The translations under genes were made by a program, and so were the position numbers. Below the pieces are notes generated by a model, which had not been told where the DNA came from, ran no database searches, and saw only the letters and a program-made list of their open reading frames with translations. Shown here in pieces: positions 7,529 through 61,553 of a DNA stretch of 64,000 bases. This stretch comes from Chloroflexi bacterium CSP1-4 (GTDB taxonomy: Bacteria; Chloroflexota; Limnocylindria; Limnocylindrales; CSP1-4). Each line of letters starts with the position of its first letter. Position 1 is the stretch's first letter. The stretch spans positions 18,133-82,132 of the forward strand of contig LDXM01000006.1 of the NCBI GenBank assembly GCA_001443375.1, in the 5' to 3' direction.

Positions 7529-7531
7529 GCG

Positions 7532-8985: not shown

Positions 8986-8987
8986 GC

Positions 8988-26893: not shown

Positions 26894-28470
26894 CGGCGTG
26901 CCTCGCCTTCGGGTGCGTCGGGGCCCGCGCCAGCGGGGGGTCGGCGGCGGGGCCCCGTGGTCACCGTCACCGGATCGGCCGGTTCGAGGTGGCTGGGGAC
27001 GGCGGTGGCGAAGGCCAGCGTGGGCGCGGCGAGGATGGAGCGGAAGCCGGCCACCAGGACCAGGGCGGCGCAGGCGAGGATGACCAACTCCGGACCGATG
27101 AGGTCGGCGATCGGGCCGACGAGGATGATGGGCAGGAAGCTGGCCACGTTGACAAGCATGTTCAGCACGCCGAATACGCGCCCTCGGATCTCCTCGGGCA
27201 GCTCCTCCTGGAGCTGCGTCTGCGCCGGCACGGCCACCAGGGCGTAGGCCACCCCCGAGACGAGCGCCAGCATGACCACGATCCCGAGCAGCGAGACCAG
27301 GCCGCCGATGGTCGTCCCGTCGGTGGTGCCCTTGAGGAACATCGAGATCGGCTGGGCGAGGGCGAGCATGCCCAGCGAGACCGCCAGCGCGACCATGCCG
27401 CCCTCGATGACGCGCCGCCGGGAGAAGTAGCGCCCGTACGCGTTGAGCAACAGGATGCCGATCACCAAGCCGGCCCCGAGCGGCAGCAGCACGACCGCCA
27501 GGCCCTCGTCGGTCAGGCCCAGGGAGTTGCGTGCGAAGCCGGGCCCGAGGACGCCGAGGACGCCGATGAGGGAGGCGCTGATGGCCAGGTAGCTGAGCGA
27601 CCAGAAGATGCTGGGGTTGTCGCGGATGAAGCGCAGGCCCTCGCGCAGCTCGCCGAACGTCGAGGCGACCGCCTGCTCGGCCTCGCCGATGGCGCGCGTG
27701 GCCGAGAGCCTCTCGCCGGGCTGCGGGACTGGCGCCGGTGGCAGGATGAAGCACAGGACGGCCGCCCCGAAGTACAGCCCGGCCACCAGGATGATCAGCG
27801 CGTTCACGCTCGTGACGCCCACCACGAGCGGGCCGAGCAGCGCGAAGCCGATGGCGAACGAGGCCTGCAACGTCAGCGTGAAGAGGCTGTTCGCCGCGAG
27901 CAGCTGGCGCCGGTCCACGAGGACCGGGATCATCGAGGCCTCGGCCGGCGCGAAGAAGACGGTCAGCGTGGAGACCACGATGGTCAGCAGGTAGATGTAG
28001 GCCAGCTGGCTGTCCACGGCCACCATGGCCACGAAGGCGAGGCCACGCGCGACGTTGGTGGCGATGAGCACCTTGCGCCGATCGAGCCGGTCCACGTAGA
28101 CCCCGGCGAGGGCGCTGAAGACGACGGCCGGCACGAGGAAGCTGAGGATCAGCAGGCTGACCGCCGAGTTCGAGTTCGTCCTCGCACTGACCAGCACGGT
28201 CAGGCCGAAGAGGACCATGTTGCCGCCGATCTGGCTGGCGACCTGGGCCAGCCAGAGGGCGAGGAAGCGGCGGTTCCTGAGGACGCCGGCGACCGTGGTA
28301 TCGACCGCCGGGCCCTCGGCCTCCTCCTCGGCCACGGCCGGGCCGCGCAGCTCGACAGCGCGCTCCACCATGGACAGACCGGCCGCCTCTTCGGCGATGA
28401 AAGTGCTCGATGCGTGATCGGGCGCCGGCTCGTCGTCGAGCGCCAGCCGCGTCTGCTCGAGCTCGTTCAT
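26890..28470 (-). CDS. MFS transporter
   Basis: About 12 predicted TM helices, MFS-type layout, acidic N-terminal cytoplasmic region and Pro/Arg-rich C-terminal tail. Confidence 0.75.
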   Translation of the reverse strand: MNELEQTRLALDDEPAPDHASSTFIAEEAAGLSMVERAVELRGPAVAEEEAEGPAVDTTVAGVLRNRRFLALWLAQVASQIGGNMVLFGLTVLVSARTNSNSAVSLLILSFLVPAVVFSALAGVYVDRLDRRKVLIATNVARGLAFVAMVAVDSQLAYIYLLTIVVSTLTVFFAPAEASMIPVLVDRRQLLAANSLFTLTLQASFAIGFALLGPLVVGVTSVNALIILVAGLYFGAAVLCFILPPAPVPQPGERLSATRAIGEAEQAVASTFGELREGLRFIRDNPSIFWSLSYLAISASLIGVLGVLGPGFARNSLGLTDEGLAVVLLPLGAGLVIGILLLNAYGRYFSRRRVIEGGMVALAVSLGMLALAQPISMFLKGTTDGTTIGGLVSLLGIVVMLALVSGVAYALVAVPAQTQLQEELPEEIRGRVFGVLNMLVNVASFLPIILVGPIADLIGPELVILACAALVLVAGFRSILAAPTLAFATAVPSHLEPADPVTVTTGPRRRPPAGAGPDAPEGEARR

Positions 28471-32944: not shown

Positions 32945-34338
32945 GGTCCGTCCTCCGGCCCGGCCGGCGGCGCCGCTGCGGACGACGCGGGACGGCCACG
33001 GCGCACGATGACGACGATGACGCCGGCCGCGATCACGAAGAGGGCCGCGACGATGACGCCGACCAGGAACCCGGTCTGGGCCGCGCCGCCGCCGTCGGGC
33101 CCGGGCGTGGCCGACGGCGTGGGGCCGCCGCTGCCCTCGGTCGGAGCGGGCGTGGCCGAACCGCCCCCGATCGCCCAGTCCGCTGGCGTCGGCCCGGGCG
33201 CCGGTGGCTGCGGGCCGTACGCCTTCGGCTCACGCGCACCGATGTCCTCGAGCCATGCCTGCCCGAAGGCCTCGATGCCGGCGCCGGTGGCGGCGCGGAA
33301 CGCTTCGTCGTCGGTGACGCCGTCCGCGTAGCTCCGGATGAGGTCCACGAGCTTCGCCTCGCTGTATCTCCGGATGAAGAAGTCGACCGCCGCGGTCCCC
33401 TCGGCGTAGCCGAGGTAGAACAGCTCCTCGCGCGCCTGCGGGAAGCCGGATGCCAGCGCATCGAGCGGCAGGAGCGTGCCGCGCTCGATCGCGTTGGCGA
33501 CGCGCTGCCGATCGCCGGAGCCGAAGCCTTCCGAGAGGTACGTCGCGAGGCCCTCGTTCAGCCAGTGGGGCGGATCATGGAAGACGTTCTGCGTGGCCGT
33601 GTCGAAGACGAGGTGGGTCAGCTCGTGCGTGATGAGGACGGGCACCCAGTCGCTGCCGATCTGGTCGGGCGCCACGGCCCCGAAGAGCGTCCGGATCTCG
33701 GCGATCGCGCGGCCGGCGACGAACTCCTTCGTGTTCGGCCCGATCGCGGTCTGCAGCAGCGTCGGGTCGCCGTAGACGTAGAAGTCGATCGGTTCGGTCT
33801 CCGTCACGCCGAGCAGAGCGGAGGCCGAGGCGACGGCTTCCTCGCCGAAGCGCAGGGCGCGCCGGGCGAAGGCTTCGCTGCCTTCGTACCAGTGGATGCG
33901 CACGACGTCACCCTCGAGCGTCTTCCACGTGACGCGATCGTCCTCGATGCGGACGGTCGCCCGCGGGCCGTCGACCACACCGTCGGGGGTGGTGACGCGG
34001 AAGCGGTAGTCGATGACGCCGTTGGGCAGGTAGAAGCCGCCATCGATGAAGTCGACCCGGTACGCGGAGCCGCCCGTCGTGGCCTGGCCGACCTCGCGCG
34101 CCTGGACCTCCTGGACGAACCACGTCTCGGTGCCGGTGAGGCGCGTCATCAACTCGACGCGGGCCGGCGGGGTCGCGGAACCGAACCCCTGTGACCAGGT
34201 GATCGCCTGGCCGAAGCGGACCTCGACCGACGGCGCCTCGAAGGTGACGCTCGTGGCGGCCCCTGCCACCGGCCCGGCGACCGATGCCCCGAACACCAGC
34301 CCCAGCACGGCGACCAGAAGTGCGAAGCGGCGCGTCAT
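32941..34338 (-). CDS. secreted zinc metallopeptidase-like protein (HExxH) with C-terminal membrane anchor
   Basis: Signal peptide, HELTH...NEGLATY zinc-binding arrangement, Pro/Gly/Thr-rich linker and a C-terminal TM helix with basic tail. Family not assignable by eye. Confidence 0.55.
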   Translation of the reverse strand: MTRRFALLVAVLGLVFGASVAGPVAGAATSVTFEAPSVEVRFGQAITWSQGFGSATPPARVELMTRLTGTETWFVQEVQAREVGQATTGGSAYRVDFIDGGFYLPNGVIDYRFRVTTPDGVVDGPRATVRIEDDRVTWKTLEGDVVRIHWYEGSEAFARRALRFGEEAVASASALLGVTETEPIDFYVYGDPTLLQTAIGPNTKEFVAGRAIAEIRTLFGAVAPDQIGSDWVPVLITHELTHLVFDTATQNVFHDPPHWLNEGLATYLSEGFGSGDRQRVANAIERGTLLPLDALASGFPQAREELFYLGYAEGTAAVDFFIRRYSEAKLVDLIRSYADGVTDDEAFRAATGAGIEAFGQAWLEDIGAREPKAYGPQPPAPGPTPADWAIGGGSATPAPTEGSGGPTPSATPGPDGGGAAQTGFLVGVIVAALFVIAAGVIVVIVRRGRPASSAAAPPAGPEDGP

Positions 34339-36008
34339 CGGTCGGCCCAGTCCAGGCCCGCGAAACGGAGGATGCCGGTGCCCGACACCGCGGTGCCCTC
34401 GAGGCCCGTACGGGCCAGCGCCCAGCCGGCGCGGTAGGCCACCGCGATGGCCGGCGCCTCGTCGCGGACGATCGCCTGGGCGTCAGCGTAGCGCGCCTGC
34501 TGCTCGGCGGGGTTACCCGTGGCAGCGGCCGCATCGAGCGCGGCGTCGTAGCGCGGCTCGCTCCAGCGACCGTAGTTGTTGGTGCTCCCGGTTTCGAGGA
34601 GGAGGCCCAGGAAGTCCTGCGGGGCGGGGTAGTCGGCGACCCAGGACATCGCCCAGAAGGCCGGCCGATCGGGCTCCTCGAGCCGCGCGAAGTACTCGGC
34701 GGACGGCATCAGCTCGAGGCGCAGTTGGACGCCGAGCACGCGAGCGATCTCGGCGGCGATGGGCTCGTCCCAGCTGTAGCCCTGCGTGACGAGTGCGACC
34801 TCGGGGAAGCCCGCTCCACCTGGATAGCCCGCCTCCGCAAGGGCGGCACGGGCGGCCTGGGGGTCGTACGAGGGCGTGAAGTCCGTGTCGCTGCGACCGG
34901 GTATGCCGGGTGGCAGCAGGGACGTGGCGCCGATGGCGTCGGGCGTCGTCAACTCGACGAGCCGGTGCCAGTCGATCGCCTGGGCGAAGGCCCGCCGGAC
35001 GCGGGCATCGTCGAAGGGCGGCTTCGTGGTGTCGAAGCCGTAGTAGTCGACGGTCAGCTCGGTGCGCTCCAGCAGCTGCGGCCCGAGGTCGGCGTCGTAG
35101 CGCACCCACCCGGCGTCGAAGGCGTCCAGCCGGCTGTAGTCGATGTCGCCCGCCTCGAAGGCCTCGACGATCGACGTCTCGCCGAGGTCGAAGACGATCT
35201 CGAGCACCTTCAGCGCAGGCGCGCCGGCCCAGTAGCGTGGGTTCGCCTCCAGCCGGATCGCCGTGGTGGTCTGGCTGGTCGGGACGTAGGCACCGGAGAC
35301 GACGAGACCGAGCGGCAGGAACGGACCCTGGCCCTGAAGGGCCACGATGGCGGCGGCGGGCAGCACGGCCAGCGACGGAGAGGCGGCCACCGAAGGGAAG
35401 TACGCGGCCGGGCGGCGGAAATCGACCACGACGCGATCGCCATCGGCCCGGATGCCCACGCCGTCAGGGCCGCTGCGCCCGGCAAGGCGCTCGTTGGCAC
35501 CCACGACGTCGGAGAGGAGCGAGGCCAGCGGTGAGGGCCGCGCCGGGTCGATCAGGCGCAGCCAGCTCGCGACCACGTCCGCGCTGGTGATCGGCGTGCC
35601 GGCCGAGTCGGTGATGCCCGGCCGCAGCGCGAACACGACGCGCCGGCCTCCGTCCTCTACCGACCAGGTCGCGGCGAGGGCGGGCTGCACGGCGCCTTGC
35701 GCGTCCACCGCGGTCAGCGACTCGAAGACCTGGGCGATCGTGATCGCCGAGCCGTAGTCGCTCTGCATGGCGGGGTCCCAGTCGGCGGGTGCAAAGCCGA
35801 CGATGCGGGCATCGACGTCACCACGGGGGGCCGCCGCGGCCGACTCGCCGCCCGTCGTGCTGGACGGCACGGCCGGTGCGGCCGGTGCTGACCCGTACCA
35901 CGTGGCGGCAGTGACGACCAGCGCGACGACCAGGAGCAGTGCCACCCCCGCGAGGCCCCGCCGGGCGCGTGGCTCGAGCGGCTCGTCGACATCGGCGGAG
36001 GACAGCAT
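34335..36008 (-). CDS. ABC-type substrate-binding protein, family 5 (peptide/nickel type), membrane-anchored
   Basis: SBP_bac_5 architecture over about 500 aa. N-terminal TM anchor instead of a lipobox. Start at ATG 36008. No permease or ATPase genes adjacent. Confidence 0.7.
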   Translation of the reverse strand: MLSSADVDEPLEPRARRGLAGVALLLVVALVVTAATWYGSAPAAPAVPSSTTGGESAAAAPRGDVDARIVGFAPADWDPAMQSDYGSAITIAQVFESLTAVDAQGAVQPALAATWSVEDGGRRVVFALRPGITDSAGTPITSADVVASWLRLIDPARPSPLASLLSDVVGANERLAGRSGPDGVGIRADGDRVVVDFRRPAAYFPSVAASPSLAVLPAAAIVALQGQGPFLPLGLVVSGAYVPTSQTTTAIRLEANPRYWAGAPALKVLEIVFDLGETSIVEAFEAGDIDYSRLDAFDAGWVRYDADLGPQLLERTELTVDYYGFDTTKPPFDDARVRRAFAQAIDWHRLVELTTPDAIGATSLLPPGIPGRSDTDFTPSYDPQAARAALAEAGYPGGAGFPEVALVTQGYSWDEPIAAEIARVLGVQLRLELMPSAEYFARLEEPDRPAFWAMSWVADYPAPQDFLGLLLETGSTNNYGRWSEPRYDAALDAAAATGNPAEQQARYADAQAIVRDEAPAIAVAYRAGWALARTGLEGTAVSGTGILRFAGLDWADR

Positions 36009-36045: not shown

Positions 36046-36384
36046 TCAGGCCGGGGGTTCGGGCCGGTCGCGCAGGAGCAGCAGGAGCATGACCACTGGC
36101 GTCCGCGCCGTGAGCGCGTGACGCATCCCGGCCGGCATGTGGATCCACGTGCCGGGGCCGGCCTCGCGCCGGTCATCGCCGAGCAGCACCTCGGCCTCTC
36201 CCTCGAGGATGTGGATGACCGCCGACATCGCCGCGGTGTGCTCGGACAGCTCCTGTCCGGCGTCGAAGCCGAAGATGACCACCTTCAGCCGGCCGTCGCT
36301 GAACACCGTCCGGCTGAGGATGCCGTCCTTGGGGATCTCCACCTCGGCCCGCAGATCGGCGAGGAACGCGTAAGGAGCCGTCAT
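36046..36384 (-). CDS. cupin domain protein
   Basis: 112 aa with cupin_2 motifs (G...H.H..E...VLLG, P.G..H). AAGGAG RBS. ATGA overlap with the upstream gene. Confidence 0.7.
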   Translation of the reverse strand: MTAPYAFLADLRAEVEIPKDGILSRTVFSDGRLKVVIFGFDAGQELSEHTAAMSAVIHILEGEAEVLLGDDRREAGPGTWIHMPAGMRHALTARTPVVMLLLLLRDRPEPPA

Positions 36385-37472
36385 GGCGCTGCTGAGACCC
36401 ACTCGATCGCCCCGCGCCGGCAGCGTGTGACGCACAGGCCGCAGCGCGTGCACAGCTGCTCGTCGATGACCGCCAGCTTGTCCACGACCGTGATGGCCTC
36501 GTAGGGGCACGACACCGCGCACAGGTCGCAACCGTTGCACGGTGCCTCCGAGACGACGGGCTTCCCGGCCGACCAAGCGGCGGGCTGATCGGCCATCGCC
36601 AGACCGCGCAGCTCCGCCGCCGTCGCATAGCCGTGCTCGTCGAGCCAGGCGTCCAGCTCGTGCGCGATCTTCCCGAAGACGCCCGGCCCACGCAGCATCG
36701 CGGCCGTGCAGACCTGGACTGCGGATGCGCCGGCCATGAGCATCTCGACGGCGTCGATCCCGTGACTGACGCCCCCGACGCCCATGATCGGCACGCGGAC
36801 GGCGCGAGCGATGTCGCGGACGCAGCGGAGCGCGAGTGGCTTCAACGCCGGCCCGGAGAGCCAGCCGTAGCCATCGGAGCCGCCGAGGTACGGCAGCCGG
36901 GTTTCGGGGTCGATGGCCAGCACCGGCCCGAACGAGTTGATGGCCACGATCCCGTCGGCTCCGGCGGCCTCGGCCTGCTCGGCGGCCCGGACCATCTCGC
37001 GGCCGAGCGGACTCAGCTTGACGAAGACGGGAACGTCGACCGCCGCCTTCGCCGCCCGGATCGCGGCGACCATCGGGCCCGCGTCCTCGCCGATGTAGTG
37101 CGTCGAGAGCTCGAGCGCATCGGCGAAGGGCCGGACCCGGGGCGCGAGCCAGGCGATCTCGTCCGGGCTGTAGCCCAGGCTGACGATGAGCGGCAGGCCG
37201 GTCTGGCGCGCCAGCGCGTACTCGTGCTCGAGCCACTGCTCCGGCGGCAACTCCGACCAGAGCTCGGTGTTGACCATGCCATGCGGGATCTCCGCGATGT
37301 TCGGCGTGGGCGGCTCGGCGGCTCGGGTCGAGATCGTCTTGGACACCAGCCCACCGGCGCCGCCCTCGGCGCAGCGGACCATCGCCCGGCCGTCGCGAAC
37401 GGGCGGCCCCGCCGCGGGCAGGATCGGGTTGGAGAAGCGGATGCCCGCGACCTCGACGCTCAGGTCCGCCAT
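36381..37472 (-). CDS. dihydroorotate/dihydropyrimidine dehydrogenase family protein (PreA-like TIM barrel with C-terminal 2x[4Fe-4S] ferredoxin domain)
   Basis: DHOD/DPD-B-like barrel (IAINSFGP, MGVGGV) followed by two CxxCxxCxxxCP clusters. ATG 37472 preceded by GGGGAGGG. Confidence 0.75.
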   Translation of the reverse strand: MADLSVEVAGIRFSNPILPAAGPPVRDGRAMVRCAEGGAGGLVSKTISTRAAEPPTPNIAEIPHGMVNTELWSELPPEQWLEHEYALARQTGLPLIVSLGYSPDEIAWLAPRVRPFADALELSTHYIGEDAGPMVAAIRAAKAAVDVPVFVKLSPLGREMVRAAEQAEAAGADGIVAINSFGPVLAIDPETRLPYLGGSDGYGWLSGPALKPLALRCVRDIARAVRVPIMGVGGVSHGIDAVEMLMAGASAVQVCTAAMLRGPGVFGKIAHELDAWLDEHGYATAAELRGLAMADQPAAWSAGKPVVSEAPCNGCDLCAVSCPYEAITVVDKLAVIDEQLCTRCGLCVTRCRRGAIEWVSAAP

Positions 37473-38821
37473 GGCGCACCCTCCCCGTGGCGACCGGGCT
37501 CGAAGGGATGGACGTCGATCTCCTCGAGCCGGCCCCACAACCGCGTCGCACCGGCCCGCGTTTGCGCTGCCAGCGCCTGCGGGTCCAGGCGGACCAACCG
37601 GCCGTCGCGGACCACCGGCTCGCCGGCCACGACGACGTCGCGGACCGACGCCGCGCCGATCCCGAACAGCCAGTGCGCGGCCAGGGTCGAGGCGTCGACC
37701 GGGGTGACCGCCGGGTACCCGAGCACGACCAGGTCCGCAGGCGCACCGGGCTCGATGCGACCCAGGAGCGGCTCGCCGAAGGCCTCGCCCGCGACCCGCG
37801 CGCCCTCGGCCAGTCGCTCGAGGGGCCAGGTCATGCCCGTCAGGACGTCCTCCTCACGACGCCGGAAGTAGGCCGCCCGACCCTCCTCGAACATGTCCGC
37901 CCCGATGCCGTCCGTGCCCAGCGCGACCCGCTCGCCGAGTGCGGCGAGGGCGGCCCGACCGACCGCGTTGTTCATGTTCGAGCGGGCGTTGTGGACGACG
38001 GTCGCACCCACCGAGCGGACGATCTCGATCTCGGCCGGGTCGAGGTGGACGCCGTGGGCCAGGATCGAGCGACGGTCGATGGCGCCGGACGCGGCGAGCC
38101 GCTGCACGACGCGCAGGCCGAAACGGGCCTCGGCGTCACGCTCGTCCGCGGCGTCCTCGGCCACGTGGACATGGAGGCCGACACCGCCCTCGCGGGACAG
38201 CTCGGCACAGGCTCCGAGCGTCTCTTCCGAGAGCGTGAACGAGGCGTGCGCCCCGACCATGGCCCGCGTTAGCGAACGAGCGCCGGACGTCGTCGTGGCG
38301 ACGAACCGGGCGTTCTCGGCGATCCCCTGGCGGGCGATCGCCGGTCCATCGCGATCGCTCGTCTCATAGCACAGCAGGGACCGGACCCCGAGCTCGCCGA
38401 GGGCGTCGGCGACGATATCGAGCGAGCCGTCGACGGCCCCCGGCGACGCGTGATGGTCGATGAGCGTCGTCGTCCCGGCCAGCAGCGCCTCCATGCCGCC
38501 GGCGAGGGCGGAGGCGCGGATGGTCGTCTCGTCGAGTGCCCGGTCGAGCCGCCACCAGATCCGCCGCAGGATCTCGACGAACGTCCGTGGCGACTCCAGC
38601 CGGTACGGCATGCCCCGTGCCAGTGCCGAATAGAGGTGGGTGTGGGCGCAGACGTTGCCCGGGATGACGAGGCACCCGCCGCAGTCGATGCGCCCGACGC
38701 CCTGCGGCGCCGCTCCGCCGACCGCGACGACCCGCCCGCCCTCGACGAGGACGTCACCCACCTCCACGACCGGCGGGGCCAGTGAGCGGACGACCGTCCC
38801 GCCGCTGAGGAGCAGCGTCAT
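37460..38821 (-). CDS. ssnA: SsnA-like aminohydrolase (TRZ/ATZ chlorohydrolase / guanine-deaminase superfamily)
   Basis: Amidohydrolase_1 with an N-terminal HTH metal motif (VCAHTHLYSALARGM) and HVHVAED. Same gene order as E. coli ssnA next to xdhD. Confidence 0.7.
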   Translation of the reverse strand: MTLLLSGGTVVRSLAPPVVEVGDVLVEGGRVVAVGGAAPQGVGRIDCGGCLVIPGNVCAHTHLYSALARGMPYRLESPRTFVEILRRIWWRLDRALDETTIRASALAGGMEALLAGTTTLIDHHASPGAVDGSLDIVADALGELGVRSLLCYETSDRDGPAIARQGIAENARFVATTTSGARSLTRAMVGAHASFTLSEETLGACAELSREGGVGLHVHVAEDAADERDAEARFGLRVVQRLAASGAIDRRSILAHGVHLDPAEIEIVRSVGATVVHNARSNMNNAVGRAALAALGERVALGTDGIGADMFEEGRAAYFRRREEDVLTGMTWPLERLAEGARVAGEAFGEPLLGRIEPGAPADLVVLGYPAVTPVDASTLAAHWLFGIGAASVRDVVVAGEPVVRDGRLVRLDPQALAAQTRAGATRLWGRLEEIDVHPFEPGRHGEGAPWRT

Positions 38822-41478
38822 CGTTCGCAGCCCGCCGCGACGGGCGCCCGCCGCGCCGTCAAGCGGTCCAGCCGCGGGACGGCGGCCCGAGCTGCGGCCG
38901 AGTCGCGCATCGGGAGGCGCGTGCGCCGCACGCCGTCGAACGCGTGCAGGGCACCGGCCACCGCGGCCGCCGTCGGGACGAGGACCGCCTCCCCTGCCCC
39001 CTTCGCCCCGTACGGGCCTTCCGGTTGGGCCTCCTCGACGAGGATGCACTCGACCGCTGGCATCGCGGCGGCGGGGATGATCCCCAGCGACTTCAACGAC
39101 TCGCTGACCGGCACGCCATCCTCGACGAGGTACGCCTCGCTGAGCGCGTAGCCGAGGCCCATGTGTACGCCGCCCTCGACCTGGCCCTCGAGCACGAGCG
39201 GGTTGATCGCCCGTCCGACGTCCTGGGCCGCGACGACCCGCTCGATGCGGCCCTCGTCGTCGAGCACCACGACCTGCGTCGCCCAGCCGTACGCGAGGTG
39301 CGTCACTGGCTCTTCGGTCGCCGACTCCGGGGCGGTCGTCCAGTCGACGACGAACTCACCCGGGAACTCGCGTCCGACGAGGTCCTCCAGCGACCCGTGG
39401 CCGAGCGCCTCGCGCAGCCGCCGGGTCGCGTCGAGCACCGCCCGGCCGCCCAGGACCGTGGCGCGCGACGCGGTCGTCTGGCCGGTGTCGAGCTCATGGT
39501 CCGTATCGACGACGACGCGGACGCGATCGGCGGGCAGGCCCAGTTCCCCGCACACGATCTGGCGCAGCGCGGTGTGGATCCCCTGCCCCATCTCCGTCCA
39601 GGAGTGGAAGAGCGTGACGGTGCCGTCCGGTTCGGGCCGGAGCACGGCGCGCCCACGCTCGGTCACGCCGTTGCCGATGCCGGTGTTCTTGGCTCCGCAG
39701 GCGATCCCCGCGTAGCGGGCGGAGCGGAACGCGTCGCGGACCGCGAGGAGCGTCCGCTTGAGGCCGACCCCGGGGCCCAGCCGCTGTCCGGTCCCGAACC
39801 GGTCACCGGCCTCGAGGGCGTTCCGCCAGCGCATCTCCCAGCGGTCGAGACCGACCCGCTCGGCGAGGACGTCGACTAGCCCCTCGACGGCGAAGGTGAC
39901 CTGCGGCACGCCGAATCCGCGCATCGCCCCACCGGGCGCGTTGTTCGTGTAGACCGCCCGCGCCTCGACATCCACGTTCGGGACGCGGTAGGCGCCGCAG
40001 GCGTGGCCGGCGGCCCGTTCGAGCACCTTCGCCCCGACGCTGGCGTACGCGCCGGTGTCACCGACGATGCGGGCCCGGACCGCGGTCAGTCGTCCGTCCT
40101 CGTCGCAGCCCACCGAGTAGGTCATCGTCAGCGGGTGGCGCTTGGGGTGGAAGCGCAGGCTCTCGCGCCGGGAGAGCGCCATGAGGACCGGCCGACCGGT
40201 CGACCACGCCAGGAGCGCCGCATGGCCCTGGACCCCCAGGTCCTCCTTGCCCCCGAACGCCCCGCCGGTCGCGACCTGCGTCACCCGGACCGAGCGCTCC
40301 GGCAGGCCCAGGATCGAGGAGATCTGGCGGCGATCCTCCCAGGCGCCCTGGCCCTGCGAGAAGACGCGCAAGGCGGGCTCCCCCGCCCCGCCGGCGTCGT
40401 CGAGACCGCCGCTCCGCGGCACGGCAAGGGCGGCCTCTGGCTCGAGGAACGCGTGCTCGACGCGCTGCGTCTCGAACGTCTCGGTCGCCACGTGCGCGGC
40501 CGCGGCAAGAGCGGCGTCCACGTCACCGTGACGGATCGCGCTGACCGAGAGCAGGTTGCCCGAGTCGTGGATGCGCGGGGCGCCGTCCACGAGTGCCACG
40601 ATCGGATCGGTCAGCGGCTCCAGGACGTCGTACTCGACGTCGACGAGCGCGGCGGCCTGACGGGCGGCGTGGCGGCTGGTCGCCGCCACGGCCGCCAACG
40701 CGTCCCCGACATAGCGGGTGGTCTCACCCTCGGCGACGAGCAGCGGCCAGTCGCGTGTCAGCAGGCCCTGGACCCGCTCGCCCGGGACGTCACGCCACGT
40801 GACGACCCGCACCACGCCGGGGTGGACGGCGGCCCGCGACACGTCGATCCGGCGGACGAGTGCGCGCGGATGATCGGCGAAGCGCAGCGCCCCGTGGAGC
40901 ATCCCGGGGACGGCCATGTCCGCCACGAACGCGTGCTCACCGAGGGCCAGCGCGGCCCCGTCGTAGCGCACGCTCCGATCCCCCACCCCGTCGCCCGGGC
41001 CCGCCCGGGTGTCGAGCGCGGGCGCCTGCCGGCCGTCGGCGACCGACGCGATGGCGTCGATCACCTTGACGTACCCGGTGCAGCGGCAGAGGTTGCCGGT
41101 GAGCGCCCGGGCGATCTCGTCGCGCGTCGGGGCCGGCCGCCGACCCAGGAGGGCCTCCGCCTTCATGACGATCCCCGGCGAGCAGAACCCGCACTGCGCG
41201 GCGCCGCTCGCCTGGAATGCCGCCGCCCACTGCGCGCGCGCGTCCGGCGCAAGCCCCTCGAGGGTGACCACCGAGCGGCCGGCGACGCGGCCGGCCGGCT
41301 GGGCGCAGGAGACGATGGCCCGACCGTCGACCACGACGGTACAGGCCCCGCACGAACCCTCCGGGGCACAGCCGTCCTTCATGGAGCGCAGGCCGCACTC
41401 CTCGCGGAGCACCTCGAGGAGGCTCGCATCCGGCCGGGGCCGGATGTCGACCGTGCGCCCGTTGAGCGTGAACTCCAT
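38818..41478 (-). CDS. xdhD: fused [2Fe-2S]-binding / molybdopterin-binding molybdenum hydroxylase (XdhD-like)
   Basis: N-terminal CoxS-type 2Fe-2S domain (CGACTV...QCGFCSPG...CRCTGY) fused to a CoxL/XdhB-type MoCo domain (GGAFGGKE), 886 aa. No FAD domain. ATG 41478 overlaps the ssnA-like start. Confidence 0.85.
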
Positions 41479-41651
41479 CGAGATATCCTTCGCGCCATGG
41501 GCGGGCCATGTGGCCCTTTCGGGGGCGCTCGTCCCGTCCGAATCTAAACACAGCCGACGGTCGTGACCCATGCTGTTGGTCCCGGCCTCGGTCCCTTTGG
41601 TCCCGATCGCCACCGGATGATACCGGCGCCGACCCGGGGCGGGAGCCGACG

Positions 41652-43150
<1,499 letters not shown>

Positions 43151-43154
<4 letters not shown>

Positions 43155-44599
43155 GCCGCGTCGGCGGGGCCGCGGCGACCCCCGCGGCGTCAGCGGGGAC
43201 CGCGCTTCCGTTCGGCCCGCGTCCGATCGAGCTGGTCTGCGCCGGCTGCGGCCATCGCGTCGCCCCCGGGGAGCCGGCTCCGCTGCGCTGCCCGCGCGCC
43301 GTGGTCGGCGATGACATCGACCACGTCATCGGCCGCGTCCTGGACCCGGCCCGCCTGCCCTTCCCGAGCGGCGATGAGCCGAACCCCTTCGTCCGTTACC
43401 GCACGCTCTTCCACGCCTTTCACGTCGCAACAGCGAGCGGCTGGACGGATCGCGACTACGTCGGCATGGTCGAGCGGCTCGACCGGGCCGTCGCGGCGGT
43501 GGACGGGGCAGGGTTCCGGGTGACGCCGTTCGCCCGCGGTGCCGCCCTGGGCCAACGCCTGGGCTTCAGCGCCGGCGGCGGGGTGTACGTCAAGGACGAG
43601 ACGGGCAACGTCTCGGGCTCCCACAAGGCGCGCCACCTGATGGGCACGATCCTCGAGCTGGAGGTGGCCGAGGCGCTCGCGGGCAGTGGCGCCGACCGAC
43701 GCCCGCTGGCGATCGCCAGCTGTGGCAACGCCGCGCTGGCCGCGGCGGTCATCGCGCGGGCCGCCGGCCGCGACCTCGAGGTGTTCATCCCGCCCGACGC
43801 CCATCCCACGGTCGTCGCCCGCCTGCGAACGCTGGGCGCGCACCTGACGGTGTGCCAGCGCGAGCCCGGGGTCCCCGGTGACCCGACCTACCGGCGGCTC
43901 CGCGAGGCGATCGAACGCGGCGCCGTCCCGTTCACGTGCCAGGGCAACGAGAACGGCTTCGCCATCGAGGGGGGCCTGACCCTGGGCTACGAGCTGGCCG
44001 CCTACCTCGCCGCCGCGGGCACGACCCTCGACCGGCTGTTCATCCAGGTCGGCGGGGGCGCGCTGGCCTCGGCGTGCATCCAGGGCCTCGCGGAGGCGCG
44101 ACTGCTGGGCTCGGGCAAGGCGGACCCGCGGATCCATCCCGTCCAGGCCGGGGCCGTCGCACCGCTCGCCCGAGCCTATGAGCGCCTGACGCGGCGGCTG
44201 GACGAGAAGCCGCCCAGCGAGGCTGACTTCGCCTGGGCCGCCCGTCACCGCTCGGCGTTCATGTGGCCCTGGGAGCACGAGCCCCACAGCGTCGCCGGCG
44301 GGATCCTCGACGACGAAACGTACGACTGGCTGGCCATCGTGCGCGGAACGCTGGCCAGCGGCGGCCGCCCCGTGGTCGTCGACGAGGCCACGCTGCTGGA
44401 GGCGAACGAACTCGGTCGCGCGGCGACCGGCATCGACTGCGATCCGACCGGCACCGCCGGCCTGGCCGGACTGCTGGAGCTGCGGCGCCACGGCGTCGTC
44501 GGCTCCGGCGAGACGGTCGCCGTCCTGTTCACCGGCGTCCGACGAGACGGCGCGCCGGCCACCGACCCGTCCCATGCACATGAGGGAGAACGACGATGA
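43151..44599 (+). CDS. PLP-dependent enzyme, threonine-synthase-like (N-terminal Cys4 ribbon)
   Basis: Zn-ribbon-like CAGCGHRV...LRCP, then [14 protein letters not shown] (PLP lysine). GTG 43151 overlaps the upstream stop. The N-terminal 216 aa of ORF 42503..44599 are rejected. Confidence 0.7.
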
Positions 44600-45549
44600 G
44601 GAGCTTTCTCGGCCGCGACATCCTGTCTCTGAAGGACTTCAGCCGCGACGACTTCCTCCGCGTCTTCGAGGTCGCCGACGACCTTCGCCCGCACGCCACC
44701 GACCGGCGCAACGGCGACCTGCTCAAGGACAAGACGCTGCTCACGGCCTTCTACCAACCGAGCACCCGGACACGCCTCTCGACGGAGGCCGCGATGCACC
44801 GGCTGGGTGGTCACGTCCTGGGCTTCGCGGACGCCAAGATGACCCGCGCCGGCGACTTCTACCAGGAGTCGATCAAGGACACCTTCCACATGCTGGAGTA
44901 CTACGGCGACGTCATCGCCATGCGGCACTTCGAGCAGGGCGCCCCAGCTGAAGCGGCGCGCTGGGCGTCCGTCCCGGTCATCAACTGCGGCGACGGGTGG
45001 GGCGAGCACCCCACCCAGGTCCTGACCGACCTGTACACGGTCCAGCGCGAGTTGGGGACCCTCGACGGGCTCACCTACCTGCTCGTGGGCGACATGCGCA
45101 TGCGAACGATGCACTCGCTCCTCTACGCCCTGTCGCAGTTCGACGCGGAGGCGATCGTGGTCAGCCCGCCGGACATGGCCCTCCTGCCCGAGTTCAAGGC
45201 CGAGCTCGATGAGCTGAACGTCGCCTACCGCGAGGCGCCCTCGGTCGCCGACGCGATCGCCGACGCGGACATCATCTACATGGAGCCGGTCGTCCAGGCC
45301 GACTACACGCAGTCGCGCGTCGAGCGCGGCGGCGAGACCGGCCGAACGCCGGAGGCATACCGGGTCACCCGGCAGCTGCTCCGCGACAAGGCCAAGCGCA
45401 GCTCGATCATCCTCCACTCGCTGCCCCGGATGGACGAGCTGCCGGCCGATGTCGACGGGACCCGACACCAGCGCTACTGGGCCGAGGCCTTCAACGGCGT
45501 TCCCCTCCGGATGGCGCTCCTCGCGCTCGTCCTCGGCGCGGTGGAGTGA
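44596..45549 (+). CDS. carbamoyltransferase, aspartate/ornithine carbamoyltransferase superfamily (paralogue 1)
   Basis: STRTR carbamoyl-phosphate motif, HPTQ and HSLP motifs. 317 aa. ATGA overlap with the upstream PLP gene. GAGGGAGAA RBS. Confidence 0.8.
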   Translation: MRSFLGRDILSLKDFSRDDFLRVFEVADDLRPHATDRRNGDLLKDKTLLTAFYQPSTRTRLSTEAAMHRLGGHVLGFADAKMTRAGDFYQESIKDTFHMLEYYGDVIAMRHFEQGAPAEAARWASVPVINCGDGWGEHPTQVLTDLYTVQRELGTLDGLTYLLVGDMRMRTMHSLLYALSQFDAEAIVVSPPDMALLPEFKAELDELNVAYREAPSVADAIADADIIYMEPVVQADYTQSRVERGGETGRTPEAYRVTRQLLRDKAKRSSIILHSLPRMDELPADVDGTRHQRYWAEAFNGVPLRMALLALVLGAVE

Positions 45550-45553
45550 GGAC

Positions 45554-46537
45554 ATGACGATGCAGACGAACCTTCGCGGTCGCGACCTGATCAGCCTCCG
45601 GGAGTGGACCCGCGAGGAGATCGAGACCGTGCTCGACGTGGCCATGGACCTGAAGCGCCAGCGCGCCCTCGGGTTGCCGCATCCGTACCTCCGCGACAAG
45701 GTCCTGGCGATGCTCTTCTTCTACTCGAGCACGCGCACCCGGGCCTCGTTCGAGGCGGGCATGGCCCAGCTCGGTGGGCACGCCCAGTTCATCGAGTCCC
45801 GCACGACCCAGATCGCCCACGGCGACACGGCCCGCGAGATCGGCGAGATCCTGGGTCGCTACAACGACGGGATCGCCATCCGCCACGTCGAGTGGGGCGT
45901 GGGCAACCAGTACATCCGCGAGGTGGCCCAGGCGAGCCGCGTGCCGGTCCTCAACATGCAATGCGACCTCTATCACCCGCACCAGGTCCTGGCCGACCTG
46001 CTGACCATCCGCGAGAAGCTGGGCGACCCGCGCGGCCGGACGCTCACCGTCTCGTGGGCCTACGCCGCGAGCTACCAGAAGCCCATCAGCGTGCCCCAGG
46101 ACCTCGTCCTGCTGGCCACGCGCTTCGGGATGCACGTCCGGCTGGTCCATCCGCCCGAGTTCCAGCTCATGGACGACGTCCTGGCCGAGGCGGCCGAGAA
46201 CGCCCGGCGCTCCGGCGGTGCGTTCGAGCTGATGGACGACTTCGACGCCGGGATGCGCGACTCGGACGTCGTCTACGCCAAGAGCTGGGGTCCCCTGCTC
46301 GTGGCCAAGGACGACGCGGAGGGAGCGGCGATCTCGGCGCGCTACACCGACTGGATCACCGACGAGCGCCGCATGGCGCTGGCCGGCCCGGACGCGATCT
46401 ACATGCACCCGCTGCCGGCCGACCGGAACATCGAGGTCGCCGATGCGGTCATCGACGGTCCTCATTCGGTCGTCTACGACGAGGCGGAGAACCGCCTCCA
46501 CGTCCAGAAGGCGGTCATGGCCCTCACGATGGCCTGA
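45554..46537 (+). CDS. carbamoyltransferase, ornithine/putrescine/oxamate carbamoyltransferase-like (paralogue 2)
   Basis: STRTR, HPHQ and HPLP motifs. 327 aa. Start ATG 45554 (the ORF-track start 45449 lies inside the preceding gene). Confidence 0.8.
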   Translation: MTMQTNLRGRDLISLREWTREEIETVLDVAMDLKRQRALGLPHPYLRDKVLAMLFFYSSTRTRASFEAGMAQLGGHAQFIESRTTQIAHGDTAREIGEILGRYNDGIAIRHVEWGVGNQYIREVAQASRVPVLNMQCDLYHPHQVLADLLTIREKLGDPRGRTLTVSWAYAASYQKPISVPQDLVLLATRFGMHVRLVHPPEFQLMDDVLAEAAENARRSGGAFELMDDFDAGMRDSDVVYAKSWGPLLVAKDDAEGAAISARYTDWITDERRMALAGPDAIYMHPLPADRNIEVADAVIDGPHSVVYDEAENRLHVQKAVMALTMA

Positions 46538-46572
46538 CGGCACGGGCGCCGCGCCCGCAAGGAGAGCGAACG

Positions 46573-47520
46573 ATGGGCGACAGGACCCTCGTGGTCGCGA
46601 TCGGCGGCAACTCGCTGATCAAGGACCCACGCCACCAGACGGTGCCGGACCAGATCGCCGCCCTGGCCGAGACGAGCGTGCACATCGCCAACGCCATCCG
46701 CGATGGCTGGCAGGTGGCCATCGGCCATGGCAACGGCCCCCAGGTCGGGTTCATCCTGCGCCGTTCCGAACTCGCCGCCCACGAACTCCACGAGGTCCCG
46801 CTCGACGTGTGCGACGCGGACACCCAGGGCGCCATCGGCTACGAGCTCCAGCAGAGCCTGGGCAACGACTTCCGGCGCATGGGCCTCGACCGCCAGGCGG
46901 TCACCGTGGTCACGCAGGTCGAGGTGGCGCGCGACGATCCGGCCTTCGGGCGCCCGACCAAGCCGATCGGCACGTTCATGGACGAGGCGCGCGCCATGCA
47001 GCGGCGCGACGGGGACGGCTGGGACGTCGTCGAGGACGCCGGCCGGGGCTGGCGGCGCGTCGTCGCCTCGCCACGCCCGCTGCGCATCGTCGAGGAACGT
47101 GCGGTCAAGGCCCTCCTGGCGGACGGGTTCGTGGTCATCACCGTGGGTGGCGGCGGGATCCCCGTCGTGGCCGACGAGACCGGCAGCCTGCACGGTGTCG
47201 CCGCGGTCATCGACAAGGACTACGCGTCCTCGCTGCTGGGCACGGTCGTGGGGGCAGAGGTCTTCGCCATCACCACCGCGGTCGAGCGGGTGGCGCTCGA
47301 CTGGGGCAAGCCGAGCCAGACCTGGGTGGATCGCCTGACCGTCGCCGAGGCGCGCGCCTACCTCGCCGAGGGCGGCCACTTCATGCCCGGCAGCATGGCA
47401 CCGAAGATCGAGGCCTGCCTCGAGTTCCTGGAGCGCGGCGGCTCGGAGGCGATCATCACCGCGCCGGCGAACCTGGAACTTGCCCTGGCCGGCCGGGCGG
47501 GGACGCGCATCGTCCCCTGA
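46573..47520 (+). CDS. arcC: carbamate kinase
   Basis: VVAIGGNSL, GHGNGPQVG and the amino-acid kinase fold. 315 aa. AAGGAGAG RBS. Confidence 0.85.
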   Translation: MGDRTLVVAIGGNSLIKDPRHQTVPDQIAALAETSVHIANAIRDGWQVAIGHGNGPQVGFILRRSELAAHELHEVPLDVCDADTQGAIGYELQQSLGNDFRRMGLDRQAVTVVTQVEVARDDPAFGRPTKPIGTFMDEARAMQRRDGDGWDVVEDAGRGWRRVVASPRPLRIVEERAVKALLADGFVVITVGGGGIPVVADETGSLHGVAAVIDKDYASSLLGTVVGAEVFAITTAVERVALDWGKPSQTWVDRLTVAEARAYLAEGGHFMPGSMAPKIEACLEFLERGGSEAIITAPANLELALAGRAGTRIVP

Positions 47521-47568
47521 GCCGGCCCCACGCGGTCGGTCCGGCGGTCGAACCGCTCGGTGGGAGTT

Positions 47569-47590
47569 CCCCCGCTACAGTGGGGGTTTC
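47569..47590 (+). terminator. candidate intrinsic terminator after carbamate kinase
   Basis: CCCCC-GCTACAGT-GGGGG stem-loop followed by TTTC, 50 nt after the arcC stop. Confidence 0.4.
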
Positions 47591-47682
47591 GGGAGCGCCC
47601 GAGGTGCGGCATGATAGCCCGCGTGGCACGCGCGGCGCCGCGGAGCGCCGACCGCTACGCAGGGACATCAGAGGAGGGTTCG

Positions 47683-47976
47683 ATGGCCACCTACGTTTCG
47701 CTGCTCAACTGGACCGATCAGGGGATCAAGGGGTACCGGGAAACGACGGCCAGGGCCGAGGCTGGGAAGGCGTTGGCTGCCAAGTTCGGAGGCCGCATCG
47801 TATCGATCTGGTGGACCATCGGGCCGTGCGACCTCGTTGCCGTGTCAGAGTTCCCGGACGACGAGTCGGCGACCGCGTTCGCGCTCGCTCTCGGCGCCGC
47901 CGGCAACATCCGGACGACCACGATGCGCGCCTTCGGGGCGGACGAGATGTCGGCGATCATCGCCCGGACTGGCTAG
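47683..47976 (+). CDS. GYD domain protein
   Basis: 97-aa ORF MATYVSLLNWTDQG...GNIRTTTMRAF matches the GYD family. AGAGGAGGG RBS. Confidence 0.65.
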   Translation: MATYVSLLNWTDQGIKGYRETTARAEAGKALAAKFGGRIVSIWWTIGPCDLVAVSEFPDDESATAFALALGAAGNIRTTTMRAFGADEMSAIIARTG

Positions 47977-48636: not shown

Positions 48637-48664
48637 TTGACAATGCATCAGAGTCTGATATAGT
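48637..48664 (+). promoter_or_regulatory. near-consensus sigma-70-type promoter (TTGACA-N16-TATAGT) driving a leaderless padR transcript
   Basis: TTGACA 48637-48642 and TATAGT 48659-48664 in an unusually AT-rich patch. padR ATG at 48672, 7 nt after the -10 and with no RBS, implies a leaderless mRNA. Confidence 0.6.
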
Positions 48665-50005: not shown

Positions 50006-50935
50006 TCAGACCTCGCCTTCGAAGTAGCCGTCGTCGACTCGTTTCACGGCAAGGCTTCGACCCGCTCGGACGCCGATGCCGTAGTCGTACATGAGCCGAG
50101 TAAGGGTGCGCCCATCGACAAGGACGATCCGTCGGCTGATTCGCCTCACGTACTCCTCGGCTTCCGGTGTGAAGTGCGACGTCGTCAAGAACACTCCCTT
50201 GCTGGCCCGTTGGCCCTCGAGGCTCCCAGCGAAGGCCTGGAGTGCCGGCCGGCCAACCCCGGTCTTCGCCTGGTACTTCTTAGCCTGGATGTACACAGCG
50301 TCGAGACCGAGCTTGTCCTCATCGATCACGCCGTCGATACCCTCATCGCCGGTCAGCTTGGTAACGCGCAGCGACGTCTCGTCGGTAGAACTCCCGTAAC
50401 CCATCGCCCCGAGGAGTTCGACCACGAGGCGCTCGAACGCCTCCCATGGGTATCCCGGCGCCTGGAGCCGGTCCAGCATGTCCGCCTCGATCGACCGACG
50501 GAGGGCGTCATAGGTCAGGTAGAGGAGTTCCTCTGGATTCTGATCGGGGATCGGGACCGGAGCCCCTTCGCTCCCGGTCTTCGGCTTCGACTTCGCCCGG
50601 AAGGCCTCGAAACCCGGGTAGCCCATGAGGAATGCGACGTTGACCTTGGCAGGCTTCTTGGCAAGGGCCTCACGTCCCACGTCGGTGATCTGCACCCGAC
50701 CCCGAGCCGGACGTGAGAGCAGTCCCGCCTTGCTCAGGTAGGTCACGGCCCAATGGGTCCGGTTGACGAAGATCGACTGACTCCCGGACAGGAGCATCCG
50801 CTGATGATCTTCCGAGGTCAGGTGGAACTGCTCAGCGAGCGGGTCCGTGATGTCGGGGACGATCCGTCGCACTTGGCCGTCGCTGAGCAGTTGGAGCACC
50901 GGAAGCATCAGCGTCTGGTAGTCCGGGATCGCCAT
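50006..50935 (-). CDS. mrr: Mrr family Type IV restriction endonuclease
   Basis: N-terminal Mrr_N winged helix (MAIPDYQTLMLPVLQLL) and C-terminal Mrr catalytic domain (DGVIDEDKLGLDAVYIQAKKY). Start ATG 50935. The upstream 27 aa of the ORF track are rejected. Confidence 0.8.
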   Translation of the reverse strand: MAIPDYQTLMLPVLQLLSDGQVRRIVPDITDPLAEQFHLTSEDHQRMLLSGSQSIFVNRTHWAVTYLSKAGLLSRPARGRVQITDVGREALAKKPAKVNVAFLMGYPGFEAFRAKSKPKTGSEGAPVPIPDQNPEELLYLTYDALRRSIEADMLDRLQAPGYPWEAFERLVVELLGAMGYGSSTDETSLRVTKLTGDEGIDGVIDEDKLGLDAVYIQAKKYQAKTGVGRPALQAFAGSLEGQRASKGVFLTTSHFTPEAEEYVRRISRRIVLVDGRTLTRLMYDYGIGVRAGRSLAVKRVDDGYFEGEV

Positions 50936-51106
50936 GGCCGGGAGTATGGCACCGGACGCGACGTCGGAGGCGTTCTTGGCGCGCTCCTCTGACGCCCCCG
51001 ACGCCCCTTCGCGCACGCTTCCAGCACTGTGACGATTAAACTGGCTTGATATTCGGCGGCAACCACTTGACAGCTGAGGCCGCCGACGACCCTGGCGTGC
51101 TGTTTC

Positions 51107-51182
51107 TGGCGCCCCCGGACGGACTCGAACCGCCGACGCAGGCCTTAGGACGGCCTCGCTCTATCCACTGAGCTACGGGGGC
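51107..51182 (-). tRNA. tRNA-Arg (anticodon CCT), CCA encoded
   Basis: Hand-folded cloverleaf: acceptor GCCCCCG/CGGGGGC, D arm GCTC/GAGC, anticodon stem AGGCC/GGCCT with loop GTCCTAA, T arm GGCGG/CCGTC with loop TTCGAGT, 3' GCCA. Confidence 0.85.
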
Positions 51183-61547: not shown

Positions 61548-61553
61548 CGGGGC

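Follow-up and report, generated by a model that had tools for sequence, protein, structure and literature searches.

We describe a gene cluster at positions 36046-47976 of a stretch of 64,000 nucleotides from contig LDXM01000006.1 of Chloroflexi bacterium CSP1-4 (hereafter the window, meaning the whole stretch analysed), in which relatives of the Escherichia coli xdhD, ssnA, ygeW and yqeA genes lie together with two pyridoxal phosphate (PLP) enzymes, PALP1 and PALP2, and a second carbamoyltransferase (CT1 and CT2 being the two). Because the window has about 72% G+C throughout, genes were called from third-position GC (GC3), and starts were fixed by agreement with homologues. The cluster was counted as 11 tightly packed genes, and the layout is as it stood in a preliminary description made from the sequence; the features discussed below are:

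36046-36384, minus strand: cupin protein (Pfam Cupin_2), translationally coupled to the reductase gene
36381-37472, minus strand: putative UacX-like reductase, 363 amino acids (Pfam DHO_dh and two Fer4)
37460-38821, minus strand: SsnA-like amidohydrolase (scored on NF005540 and TIGR03314)
38818-41478, minus strand: fused 2Fe-2S/molybdenum hydroxylase, 886 amino acids (Pfam Fer2, Fer2_2, Ald_Xan_dh_C and MoCoBD_1/2; TIGR03311)
41652-43154, plus strand: PALP1, 500 amino acids (Pfam PALP)
43151-44599, plus strand: PALP2 (Pfam PALP), translationally coupled to PALP1
44596-45549, plus strand: CT1 (OTCace_N/OTCace; TIGR00670)
45554-46537, plus strand: CT2 (OTCace_N/OTCace; YgeW-type loops)
46573-47520, plus strand: carbamate kinase of the YqeA/ArcC type (NF009007)
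47683-47976, plus strand: GYD-domain protein (Pfam GYD)

The gene list and overlaps first described are confirmed, with Pfam and NCBIfam bearing out every family then named: the four minus-strand genes overlap by 4, 13 and 4 nt and are translationally coupled, and a divergent spacer of 173 nt separates the hydroxylase gene from PALP1. The unusual composition once ascribed to the cluster was not found, since its GC (0.70-0.745) is the same as that of its flanks; the phrase can apply to the part list only. The rest of the window is housekeeping (his operon, tRNA synthetases, elongation factor G, electron-transfer flavoprotein, acyl-CoA dehydrogenase). With E. coli queries, tblastn found no homologue of YgeX, YgeY, HyuA, YgfK, YgfM, YqeB or YqeC in the 64 kb, and Pfam scans of the window's other called genes showed no SelD-type family, so that the absence of YgfM, YgeY, yqeB, yqeC and selD noted earlier stands. 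Nor did the Pfam and NCBIfam scans of the window show a uricase, an allantoinase or a ureidoglycine/ureidoglycolate enzyme, or any pyr or arg gene near the cluster.

The E. coli and Clostridium clusters were characterized in 2025 as encoding reductive urate degradation via 2,8-dioxopurine, with YgeW and YqeA making ATP (PMC12507026; bioRxiv 10.1101/2025.04.24.650524). In the published route urate is converted to 2,8-dioxopurine by XdhD-YgfM (E. coli) or XdhAC (C. sporogenes); dearomatization is by YgfK or, in C. difficile, by the small PydA/PreA-like Fe-S flavoprotein UacX; SsnA yields ureidomethylhydantoin or 5-ureidodihydrouracil, and HyuA 2,3-diureidopropionate; YgeW and YqeA remove one ureido group with formation of ATP, for which C. 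difficile uses the hydrolase UacY instead; YgeY hydrolyses the other ureido group, and YgeX converts diaminopropionate to pyruvate (PMC12507026; bioRxiv 10.1101/2025.04.24.650524). Gut strains with the pathway always have YqeBC/SelD, and according to a commentary only obligate or facultative anaerobes have it. SsnA was noted in Chloroflexota and Actinomycetota by Li et al., who reported an F420 enzyme in the reductase's place; because neighbours were scored there by Pfam family only, those with OTCace and PALP domains were counted as YgeW and YgeX.

The hydroxylase passes the curated model for Se-dependent xanthine dehydrogenase (TIGR03311, 963.6 bits, cut-off 830.45) and by tblastn is 25% identical to E. 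coli XdhD and 29% to XdhA; we propose that it is a 2,8-dioxopurine dehydrogenase (interconverting urate and 2,8-dioxopurine) that would work without an FAD subunit. A residue test proved uninformative here: Glu606 of E. coli XdhD, proposed by Li et al. to orient the substrate, falls within an insertion peculiar to the E. coli protein, for which neither the window protein nor XdhA has a counterpart. The SsnA-like protein scored 428.9 bits on NF005540 (cut-off 444) and 409.5 on TIGR03314 (cut-off 455.5), with the next-best model at 163, and is 37% identical to E. coli SsnA over its full length (tblastn); as an SsnA-family amidohydrolase it is proposed to open the reduced 2,8-dioxopurine hydrolytically. 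The reductase consists of an FMN barrel of the dihydroorotate dehydrogenase/dihydropyrimidine dehydrogenase (DHOD/DPD) type and a C-terminal domain with two [4Fe-4S] clusters, with no FAD domain. It scores under the PreA and PyrD cut-offs, in the PDB it matches DHOD 1B and pig DPD best, and no PreT partner is present; we propose a dearomatizing 2,8-dioxopurine reductase, UacX-like by the published architecture of the C. difficile protein. Since it has no FAD subunit and has a UacX-type reductase, the minus-strand trio is of the C. difficile-type architecture. It shares with the C. difficile/C. sporogenes variant (XdhAC or XdhD, no YgfM) a TIGR03311 hydroxylase without FAD subunit and, by published description, a small DHOD/PydA-like Fe-S flavoprotein, and presumably also a ferredoxin-like electron donor.

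Both carbamoyltransferases carry the STRTR/HPxQ/HxLP motifs first read from the sequence, as STRTR, HPTQ and HSLP in CT1 and STRTR, HPHQ and HPLP in CT2. CT2 falls under all NCBIfam cut-offs, namely those for acetylornithine carbamoyltransferase (AOTCase, 257.6/288), ornithine carbamoyltransferase (OTCase, 256.4/306 and 246.7/280.85) and YgeW (194/453). It is 35% identical to E. coli YgeW (197 bits) vs. 30% to ArgI (143 bits), and has in common with YgeW the loops TQIAHGD, WAYxxSYxKPxSVPQ and KSWGP, the last replacing the ornithine loop DxxxSMG of OTCases. We propose that CT2 is a short YgeW-type carbamoyltransferase that would phosphorolyse 2,3-diureidopropionate. The kinase is well within its family (NF009007, 386 bits, cut-off 266), is 46% identical to E. 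coli YqeA, and follows CT2 in 35 of the related loci described below, like yqeA after ygeW.

CT1 passes the TIGR00670 equivalog model for aspartate carbamoyltransferase (ATCase; 251.9 bits, cut-off 236.95), and E. coli PyrB is 38% identical to it (tblastn); that cut-off alone would name its family ATCase, a systematic annotation error. In alignment with E. coli PyrB, all 57 members of the family keep Ser52-Thr55, Arg105, His134, Gln137, Arg167 and Leu267, and all 57 have Lys84 changed to Tyr, Arg229 to Pro and HPLP to HSLP, with loss of the Arg229-x-Gln231 (RxQ) motif; the 80s loop is remodelled (MTRAGDFYQES). Genuine ATCases among the 150 best representatives retain K84, RxQ and HPLP, and in a search space of 1.84 billion representatives the CT1 signature was limited to a compact family (two full-length representatives at 76-80% identity, the next match having 50% and 294 bits). 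Loss of Lys84 and Arg229, the cations for the beta-carboxylate, with retention of Arg167 for the alpha-carboxylate, would suit an N-alpha-carbamoyl acid with an amine or ureide side chain.

These features are those of the pseudo-ATCases defined by Barba et al. 2013 (PMC4016543): CT1 is an ATCase paralogue that keeps STRT and HPTQ, has lost RxQ, has H-x-L-P altered to HSLP, and stands in a non-pyrimidine context, beside a carbamate kinase and purine genes. One of them, the ureidoglycine carbamoyltransferase Rxyl_2847 of Rubrobacter xylanophilus, was shown experimentally to be an allantoate:phosphate carbamoyltransferase and adjoins a carbamate kinase, and another, of Nocardioides sp. JS614 (subgroup 2), lies beside a ygeW homologue, xdhABC and hyuA (PMC4016543). 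Allantoate and 2,3-diureidopropionate are close analogues, and Rxyl_2847 is a precedent for phosphorolysis of the alpha-ureido group of a diureido acid. CT1 differs in that its EPVVQ at the RxQ position is not an exact fit to any of the three signatures published for the subgroups, in its proposed substrate (a diaminopropionate ureide, not allantoate), and in its partners (PALP1 and PALP2, not allantoinase and asparaginase). We propose that it is a pseudo-ATCase that phosphorolyses the 2-ureido (N-alpha-carbamoyl) group in place of the hydrolase YgeY. Because the two published studies give conflicting accounts of the ureido group taken off by YgeW, the division into 2-ureido for CT1 and 3-ureido for CT2 rests on analogy with ATCase/UGTCase and OTCase.

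Neither PLP enzyme reaches a curated family cut-off, and NF006058, for diaminopropionate ammonia-lyase, matches neither. PALP1 scores far under the CysK cut-offs (cysK 77.8/350.95), with a weak match to SbnA. Its AlphaFold2 model (pLDDT 87.5) has the CysK/CBS fold with helical N- and C-terminal extensions, and the top Foldseek matches, CBS and CysK (TM about 0.75 on the target), give no functional clue. The PLP-binding Lys112 and the carboxylate-binding STGN loop are invariant among its homologues, which are about 70% identical across phyla and which their sources name only 'cysteine synthase' or 'PLP-dependent enzyme'. PALP2 is ThrC-like with a Cys-rich N-terminal segment (NF006050, threonine synthase, 81.3/303); in a profile comparison with the PDB, ThrC was best (4e-20), diaminopropionate ammonia-lyase reached only E=0.0047, and aspartate racemase was among the matches. 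PALP1 and PALP2 are proposed to share the role of YgeX (diaminopropionate to pyruvate and NH3); a two-step route, a stereochemical division of labour and a complex are possibilities for why there should be two.

The profile-HMM and neighbourhood comparisons suggested in the preliminary description were both run; neither of the refuting outcomes that it named was found, and linkage of the plus-strand genes to XdhD-SsnA proved to be conserved. The window SsnA was scanned against one genome per species, giving more than 504 relatives, and the best 80 loci were analysed by tblastn and by clustering of all called genes. Almost all were from uncultured soil or sediment metagenome-assembled genomes (MAGs), the closest being a Candidatus Limnocylindria MAG (94% identical) and others being labelled Chloroflexota/Chloroflexia, Actinomycetes, Gaiellaceae and Thermoleophilia, with one Dormibacterales; the hosts of related loci are soil MAGs of Chloroflexota, Actinomycetota, Armatimonadota and Dormibacterota. 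Among the 80 loci, the families were found as follows: XdhD-type hydroxylase, 78; SsnA, 78; CT2, 60; CT1, 59; PALP1, 59; PALP2, 57, always adjoining PALP1; and carbamate kinase, 35. Where full 10-kb flanks were available (44 loci), the counts were XdhD 44, CT2 41, CT1 40, PALP2 40, PALP1 39 and carbamate kinase 24. The triad PALP1-PALP2-CT1 was called in 38 of these 44, and in three more by tblastn, which left only L017, L038 and L050 with no triad gene. Sampling from the other side, around PALP1 on long contigs, the fused hydroxylase and amidohydrolase were within 10 kb in seven of nine cases, including an Armatimonadota MAG. With this gene set recurring together in dozens of loci of several phyla, the arrangement is far from chance, and since gene order varies by lineage (divergent in the Chloroflexota type, co-directional as PALP1-PALP2-CT1-XdhD-SsnA-... 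in the actinobacterial type), the linkage is selected rather than inherited synteny.

The slot after SsnA is occupied in 55 loci by an LLM-class F420 oxidoreductase and in 22 by a UacX-type reductase; L010, L028 and L090 have a full-length YgfK there (36% identical to the E. coli protein), and L023, L085 and L088 a short YgfK-like protein. XdhD-SsnA is thus constant while at least four unrelated or truncated reductase types alternate in the next slot, which suggests that a single reaction is coupled to NAD(P)H, F420 or ferredoxin according to lineage. Of the PreA-like protein and cupin that had been taken together to replace ygfK, the PreA-like protein alone fills this slot; the cupin has no counterpart in the related loci.

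Several neighbours bear on the substrate. Actinobacterial loci include a three-subunit xanthine dehydrogenase, and inside the clusters of L005, L017, L032, L038, L050 and others lies an 8-oxoguanine deaminase (family F11; NF006055, 618 bits, cut-off 532), which ties oxidized guanine directly to urate and this pathway. A 564-amino-acid family in the relatives is adenine deaminase-like and their ABC-transporter genes are BMP nucleoside-like, both as judged by eye without a family search. Since all of these would feed urate, the substrate class is taken to be purines, and the substrate, first called unreadable from the sequence, can now be inferred as urate/2,8-dioxopurine.

Complementary gene distribution suggests what the triad replaces. 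In about 90 loci there was not one YgeX orthologue, whereas nearly all have the PALP pair. Two loci are hybrids. In L037 (1519-7254), which lacks CT1, PALP1-PALP2 is followed by a closer YgeW homologue (362 bits) and that in turn by a YgeY-like M20 protein; L050 (4836-9965), where PALP1, PALP2 and CT1 are all absent, combines a true YgeY (496 bits, cut-off 321) with one ThrC-like PLP enzyme between XdhD and SsnA. It is from these hybrids and the general absence of YgeX that we equate CT1 with YgeY and the PLP pair with YgeX. The same reasoning does not extend to the hydantoinase. HyuA orthologues stand beside the cluster in six loci (TIGR02033, 567 bits, cut-off 393), five full-length matches being 39-43% identical to E. 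coli HyuA, and in four of the six (L022, L048, L074 and L023) they share the locus with triad genes; since both occur in the same locus, the triad does not replace HyuA. The preliminary description was therefore right that the window has no hydantoinase and wrong insofar as it had the enzyme dispensed with: the step is probably encoded elsewhere.

Taking these lines together, we consider it likely that the cluster encodes the reductive urate (2,8-dioxopurine) pathway in a variant form carried by soil bacteria, in which both ureido groups are phosphorolysed and a PLP pair ends the route. The steps of XdhD, UacX, SsnA, CT2 and carbamate kinase are predicted by homology to characterized enzymes. 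The XdhAC-type molybdenum hydroxylase would take the 6-oxo group off urate to give 2,8-dioxopurine, the UacX-like FMN/Fe-S reductase would dearomatize it, and SsnA would open the first ring to ureidomethylhydantoin or 5-ureidodihydrouracil; a HyuA-type hydantoinase from outside the window's gene set would open the second ring, giving 2,3-diureidopropionate. CT2 would then phosphorolyse one ureido group and CT1 the other (N-alpha) group, the same group that gut bacteria hydrolyse with YgeY. Carbamate kinase (carbamoyl phosphate + ADP to ATP + NH3 + CO2) would make ATP from both carbamoyl phosphates, two per urate and not one, and PALP1/PALP2 would turn 2,3-diaminopropionate into pyruvate and ammonia in place of YgeX.

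The earlier view, which made the cluster homologous to the E. coli xdhD/ssnA/ygeW/yqeA purine pathway and gave it substrate-level phosphorylation with another part list, is supported by this synteny and by the 2025 papers. Common to the window and the E. coli cluster (xdhD-ygfM, ygfK, ssnA, hyuA, ygeW, yqeA, ygeY, ygeX) are an SsnA-like amidohydrolase (37%), a carbamoyltransferase of the YgeW type (35%), a carbamate kinase (46%) and a hydroxylase with fused Fe-S and Mo domains, and the same logic would apply: reduce, open the rings, harvest carbamoyl phosphate, finish with a PLP enzyme. The window differs in being without YgfM, YgfK, HyuA, YgeY, YgeX, YqeB and YqeC and in adding CT1 and two PLP enzymes of other subfamilies. 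Gut clusters differ from it in carrying HyuA, YgeY and YgeX, in strains that carry YqeBC/SelD; in C. difficile, moreover, the ureido group is hydrolysed by UacY and there is no carbamate kinase. The arginine deiminase pathway (ArcA-ArcB-ArcC) likewise joins a catabolic carbamoyltransferase to carbamate kinase for substrate-level ATP, but the window has no arginine deiminase, CT2 has no DxxxSMG, and the context is purines. The front end is thus the layout already known from C. difficile, whereas the back end is a variant for which our literature search found no published description.

More specifically, and as a real though not quite even prospect, the triad would be an uncharacterized way of finishing reductive purine catabolism that is widespread among soil phyla, most of them aerobic: a pseudo-ATCase of new specificity (2-ureido-3-aminopropionate or 2,3-diureidopropionate:phosphate) would replace YgeY, and a CysK-like/ThrC-like pair, possibly forming a complex or working in two steps, would replace YgeX, with two ATP per urate.

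Several points weigh against this interpretation. The hydroxylase shares only 25% identity with E. coli XdhD, and SsnA and CT2 are under their curated cut-offs. The hydantoinase is missing from the window and from about 80 of 86 loci. The gut pathway needs yqeB, yqeC and selD, yet neither of the first two turned up in the window or the related loci, nor did a SelD-type family in the window scans (the loci were not searched for selD). The model has no explanation for the need for two different PLP enzymes, and published studies are at odds over which ureido group YgeW takes off. The roles of CT1, PALP1 and PALP2 we infer from active-site changes, precedent and complementary gene distribution. 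Finally, L083 (4871-16476) carries PALP1-PALP2-CT1-carbamate kinase with a Liv/Urt-type ABC transporter and an AsnC regulator, with XdhD and SsnA absent within 10 kb, so that the module may also serve another, imported ureido substrate.

This last locus leads to the alternative that survives best, that the plus-strand module is a separate unit for some other ureido compound (allantoate or ureidoglycine of the oxidative route or, by import, albizziin or an N-carbamoyl amino acid) and merely neighbours XdhD-SsnA. The carbamoyltransferase of L083 is 80.5% identical to CT1, the sole assayed pseudo-ATCase cleaves allantoate, and a few actinobacterial loci have a 146-amino-acid family that is OHCU-decarboxylase-like by eye (no family search). 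We nonetheless think it unlikely, in that, whichever end the sampling starts from and whatever the phylum or gene order, the module is almost always linked to XdhD-SsnA, that the window has none of the uricase, allantoinase and ureidoglycine/ureidoglycolate enzymes, that CT2 is like YgeW, whose substrate is 2,3-diureidopropionate, and that the hybrid loci exchange the triad for genes of YgeY and YgeX type.

Alternatively, the PLP enzymes, or one of them, might not be diaminopropionate deaminases: PALP1 might beta-eliminate urea from albizziin, or a 5-amino-dihydrouracil ring might be opened by beta-elimination after CT1 acts on 5-ureidodihydrouracil, with no hydantoinase needed, or one enzyme might be a D/L racemase. 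The PLP lysine, STGN loop and weak SbnA match of PALP1 place it in a family whose members form and cleave C(beta)-N bonds; there are racemases in fold-type II, and aspartate racemase was among the PALP2 profile matches; HyuA is absent from most loci, and two PLP enzymes exceed what the simple model needs. Against this stand the co-occurrence of HyuA with the triad in L022, L048, L074 and L023, and L050, which manages with YgeY and one ThrC-like enzyme; release of urea would, besides, make one carbamoyltransferase redundant, because both have complete carbamoyl-phosphate sites. We hold this family of explanations to be improbable. The weakest alternative, that CT1 and CT2 are ordinary anabolic enzymes (PyrB and ArgF) and that the PreA-like protein and amidohydrolase belong to a reductive pyrimidine (Pyd) pathway with no purine module, can point to CT1 passing TIGR00670, to AOTCase and OTCase being the best models for CT2 and to the resemblance of the reductase to PreA and DHOD, but is largely refuted and deserves scarcely any credence, given that CT1 is without the Lys84 and RxQ kept by genuine ATCases in the same search, that CT2 is without DxxxSMG and under all cut-offs, that no pyr or arg genes or PreT partner are nearby, and that in 22 loci the reductase gene follows those of a TIGR03311 hydroxylase and SsnA.

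Under the soil variant of the urate pathway, what is new lies in the back end: two phosphorolytic carbamoyltransferases feeding one carbamate kinase, by which CT1 could double the ATP yield, and a CysK-like/ThrC-like pair in place of YgeX, PALP1/PALP2 being a conserved pair without a characterized member. Two carbamoyltransferases of different ancestry (ATCase-like for an N-alpha-carbamoyl group, OTCase/YgeW-like for a distal ureido group) would also give a handle on which ureido group YgeW removes first, an open question in the literature. If the reading is true, a pathway regarded as confined to anaerobes would be a general soil route to nitrogen and energy, often F420-linked or else ferredoxin-linked, and possibly in a selenium-independent form.

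The divergent spacer between xdhD and PALP1 contains a 6-2-6 palindrome, GGGCCATGTGGCCCT, at 41503-41517, 25-39 nt upstream of the xdhD start. Its pattern has one match in the window vs. 0.00 expected and was found in 15 of 89 loci, in 13 of these as a single match beside the XdhD start. A second conserved spacer motif, TGCTGTTGGTCCCG, is at 41571-41584. Both look like candidate operators, and no regulator gene adjoins them. A riboswitch or leader RNA in the spacer was discounted: an Rfam gathering search of the window gave two tRNAs only, and the 173-nt fold was no better than shuffles (z = -0.13). A terminator and promoter scan gave no operon boundaries. A near-consensus sigma-70-type promoter at 48637-48664 (TTGACA, 16 nt, TATAGT, with a TG extension), the only such promoter in 15.5 kb of 72% G+C DNA, belongs to the PadR gene downstream of it.

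Because tblastn found no homologue of the cupin or the GYD protein in any related locus, both were dropped as parts of the cluster, against the initial inclusion of the GYD protein, and they are probably passengers. The cupin was also considered as a ureidoglycine aminohydrolase, for which the NCBIfam match is noise (18 bits, cut-off 338). Abutting the cupin is an orphan SBP_bac_5 gene (34335-36008), syntenic only in the close relative L003 (13445-15094); in L086, of Armatimonadota (6547-9975), a 25%-identical SBP_bac_5 protein and two permeases lie between reductase and PALP1. We leave SBP_bac_5 as a candidate uptake component.

Some 8 kb from the cluster is a coupled trio (24195-28470) of an Amidohydro_3 protein (573 amino acids), an asparaginase and an MFS transporter, not kept in the related loci; asparaginase genes neighbour pseudo-ATCases in Rubrobacter and marine bacteria (PMC4016543). 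The Amidohydro_3 gene (24195-25916) was rejected as a substitute for UacY or HyuA, having no NCBIfam family and being about 10 kb off, separated by unrelated genes, and not conserved. The molybdenum cofactor genes for MogA/MoaB-like, MoaC and MoeA proteins lie at 61020-63406, 13 kb downstream of the cluster; mocA, yqeB, yqeC and selD were not found in the window. Within 50006-51182, an Mrr-type restriction endonuclease gene has the window's lowest GC3 (0.80), lies in its lowest-GC stretch (0.68) and adjoins a tRNA gene (51110-51182); this region may be a small acquired insertion.

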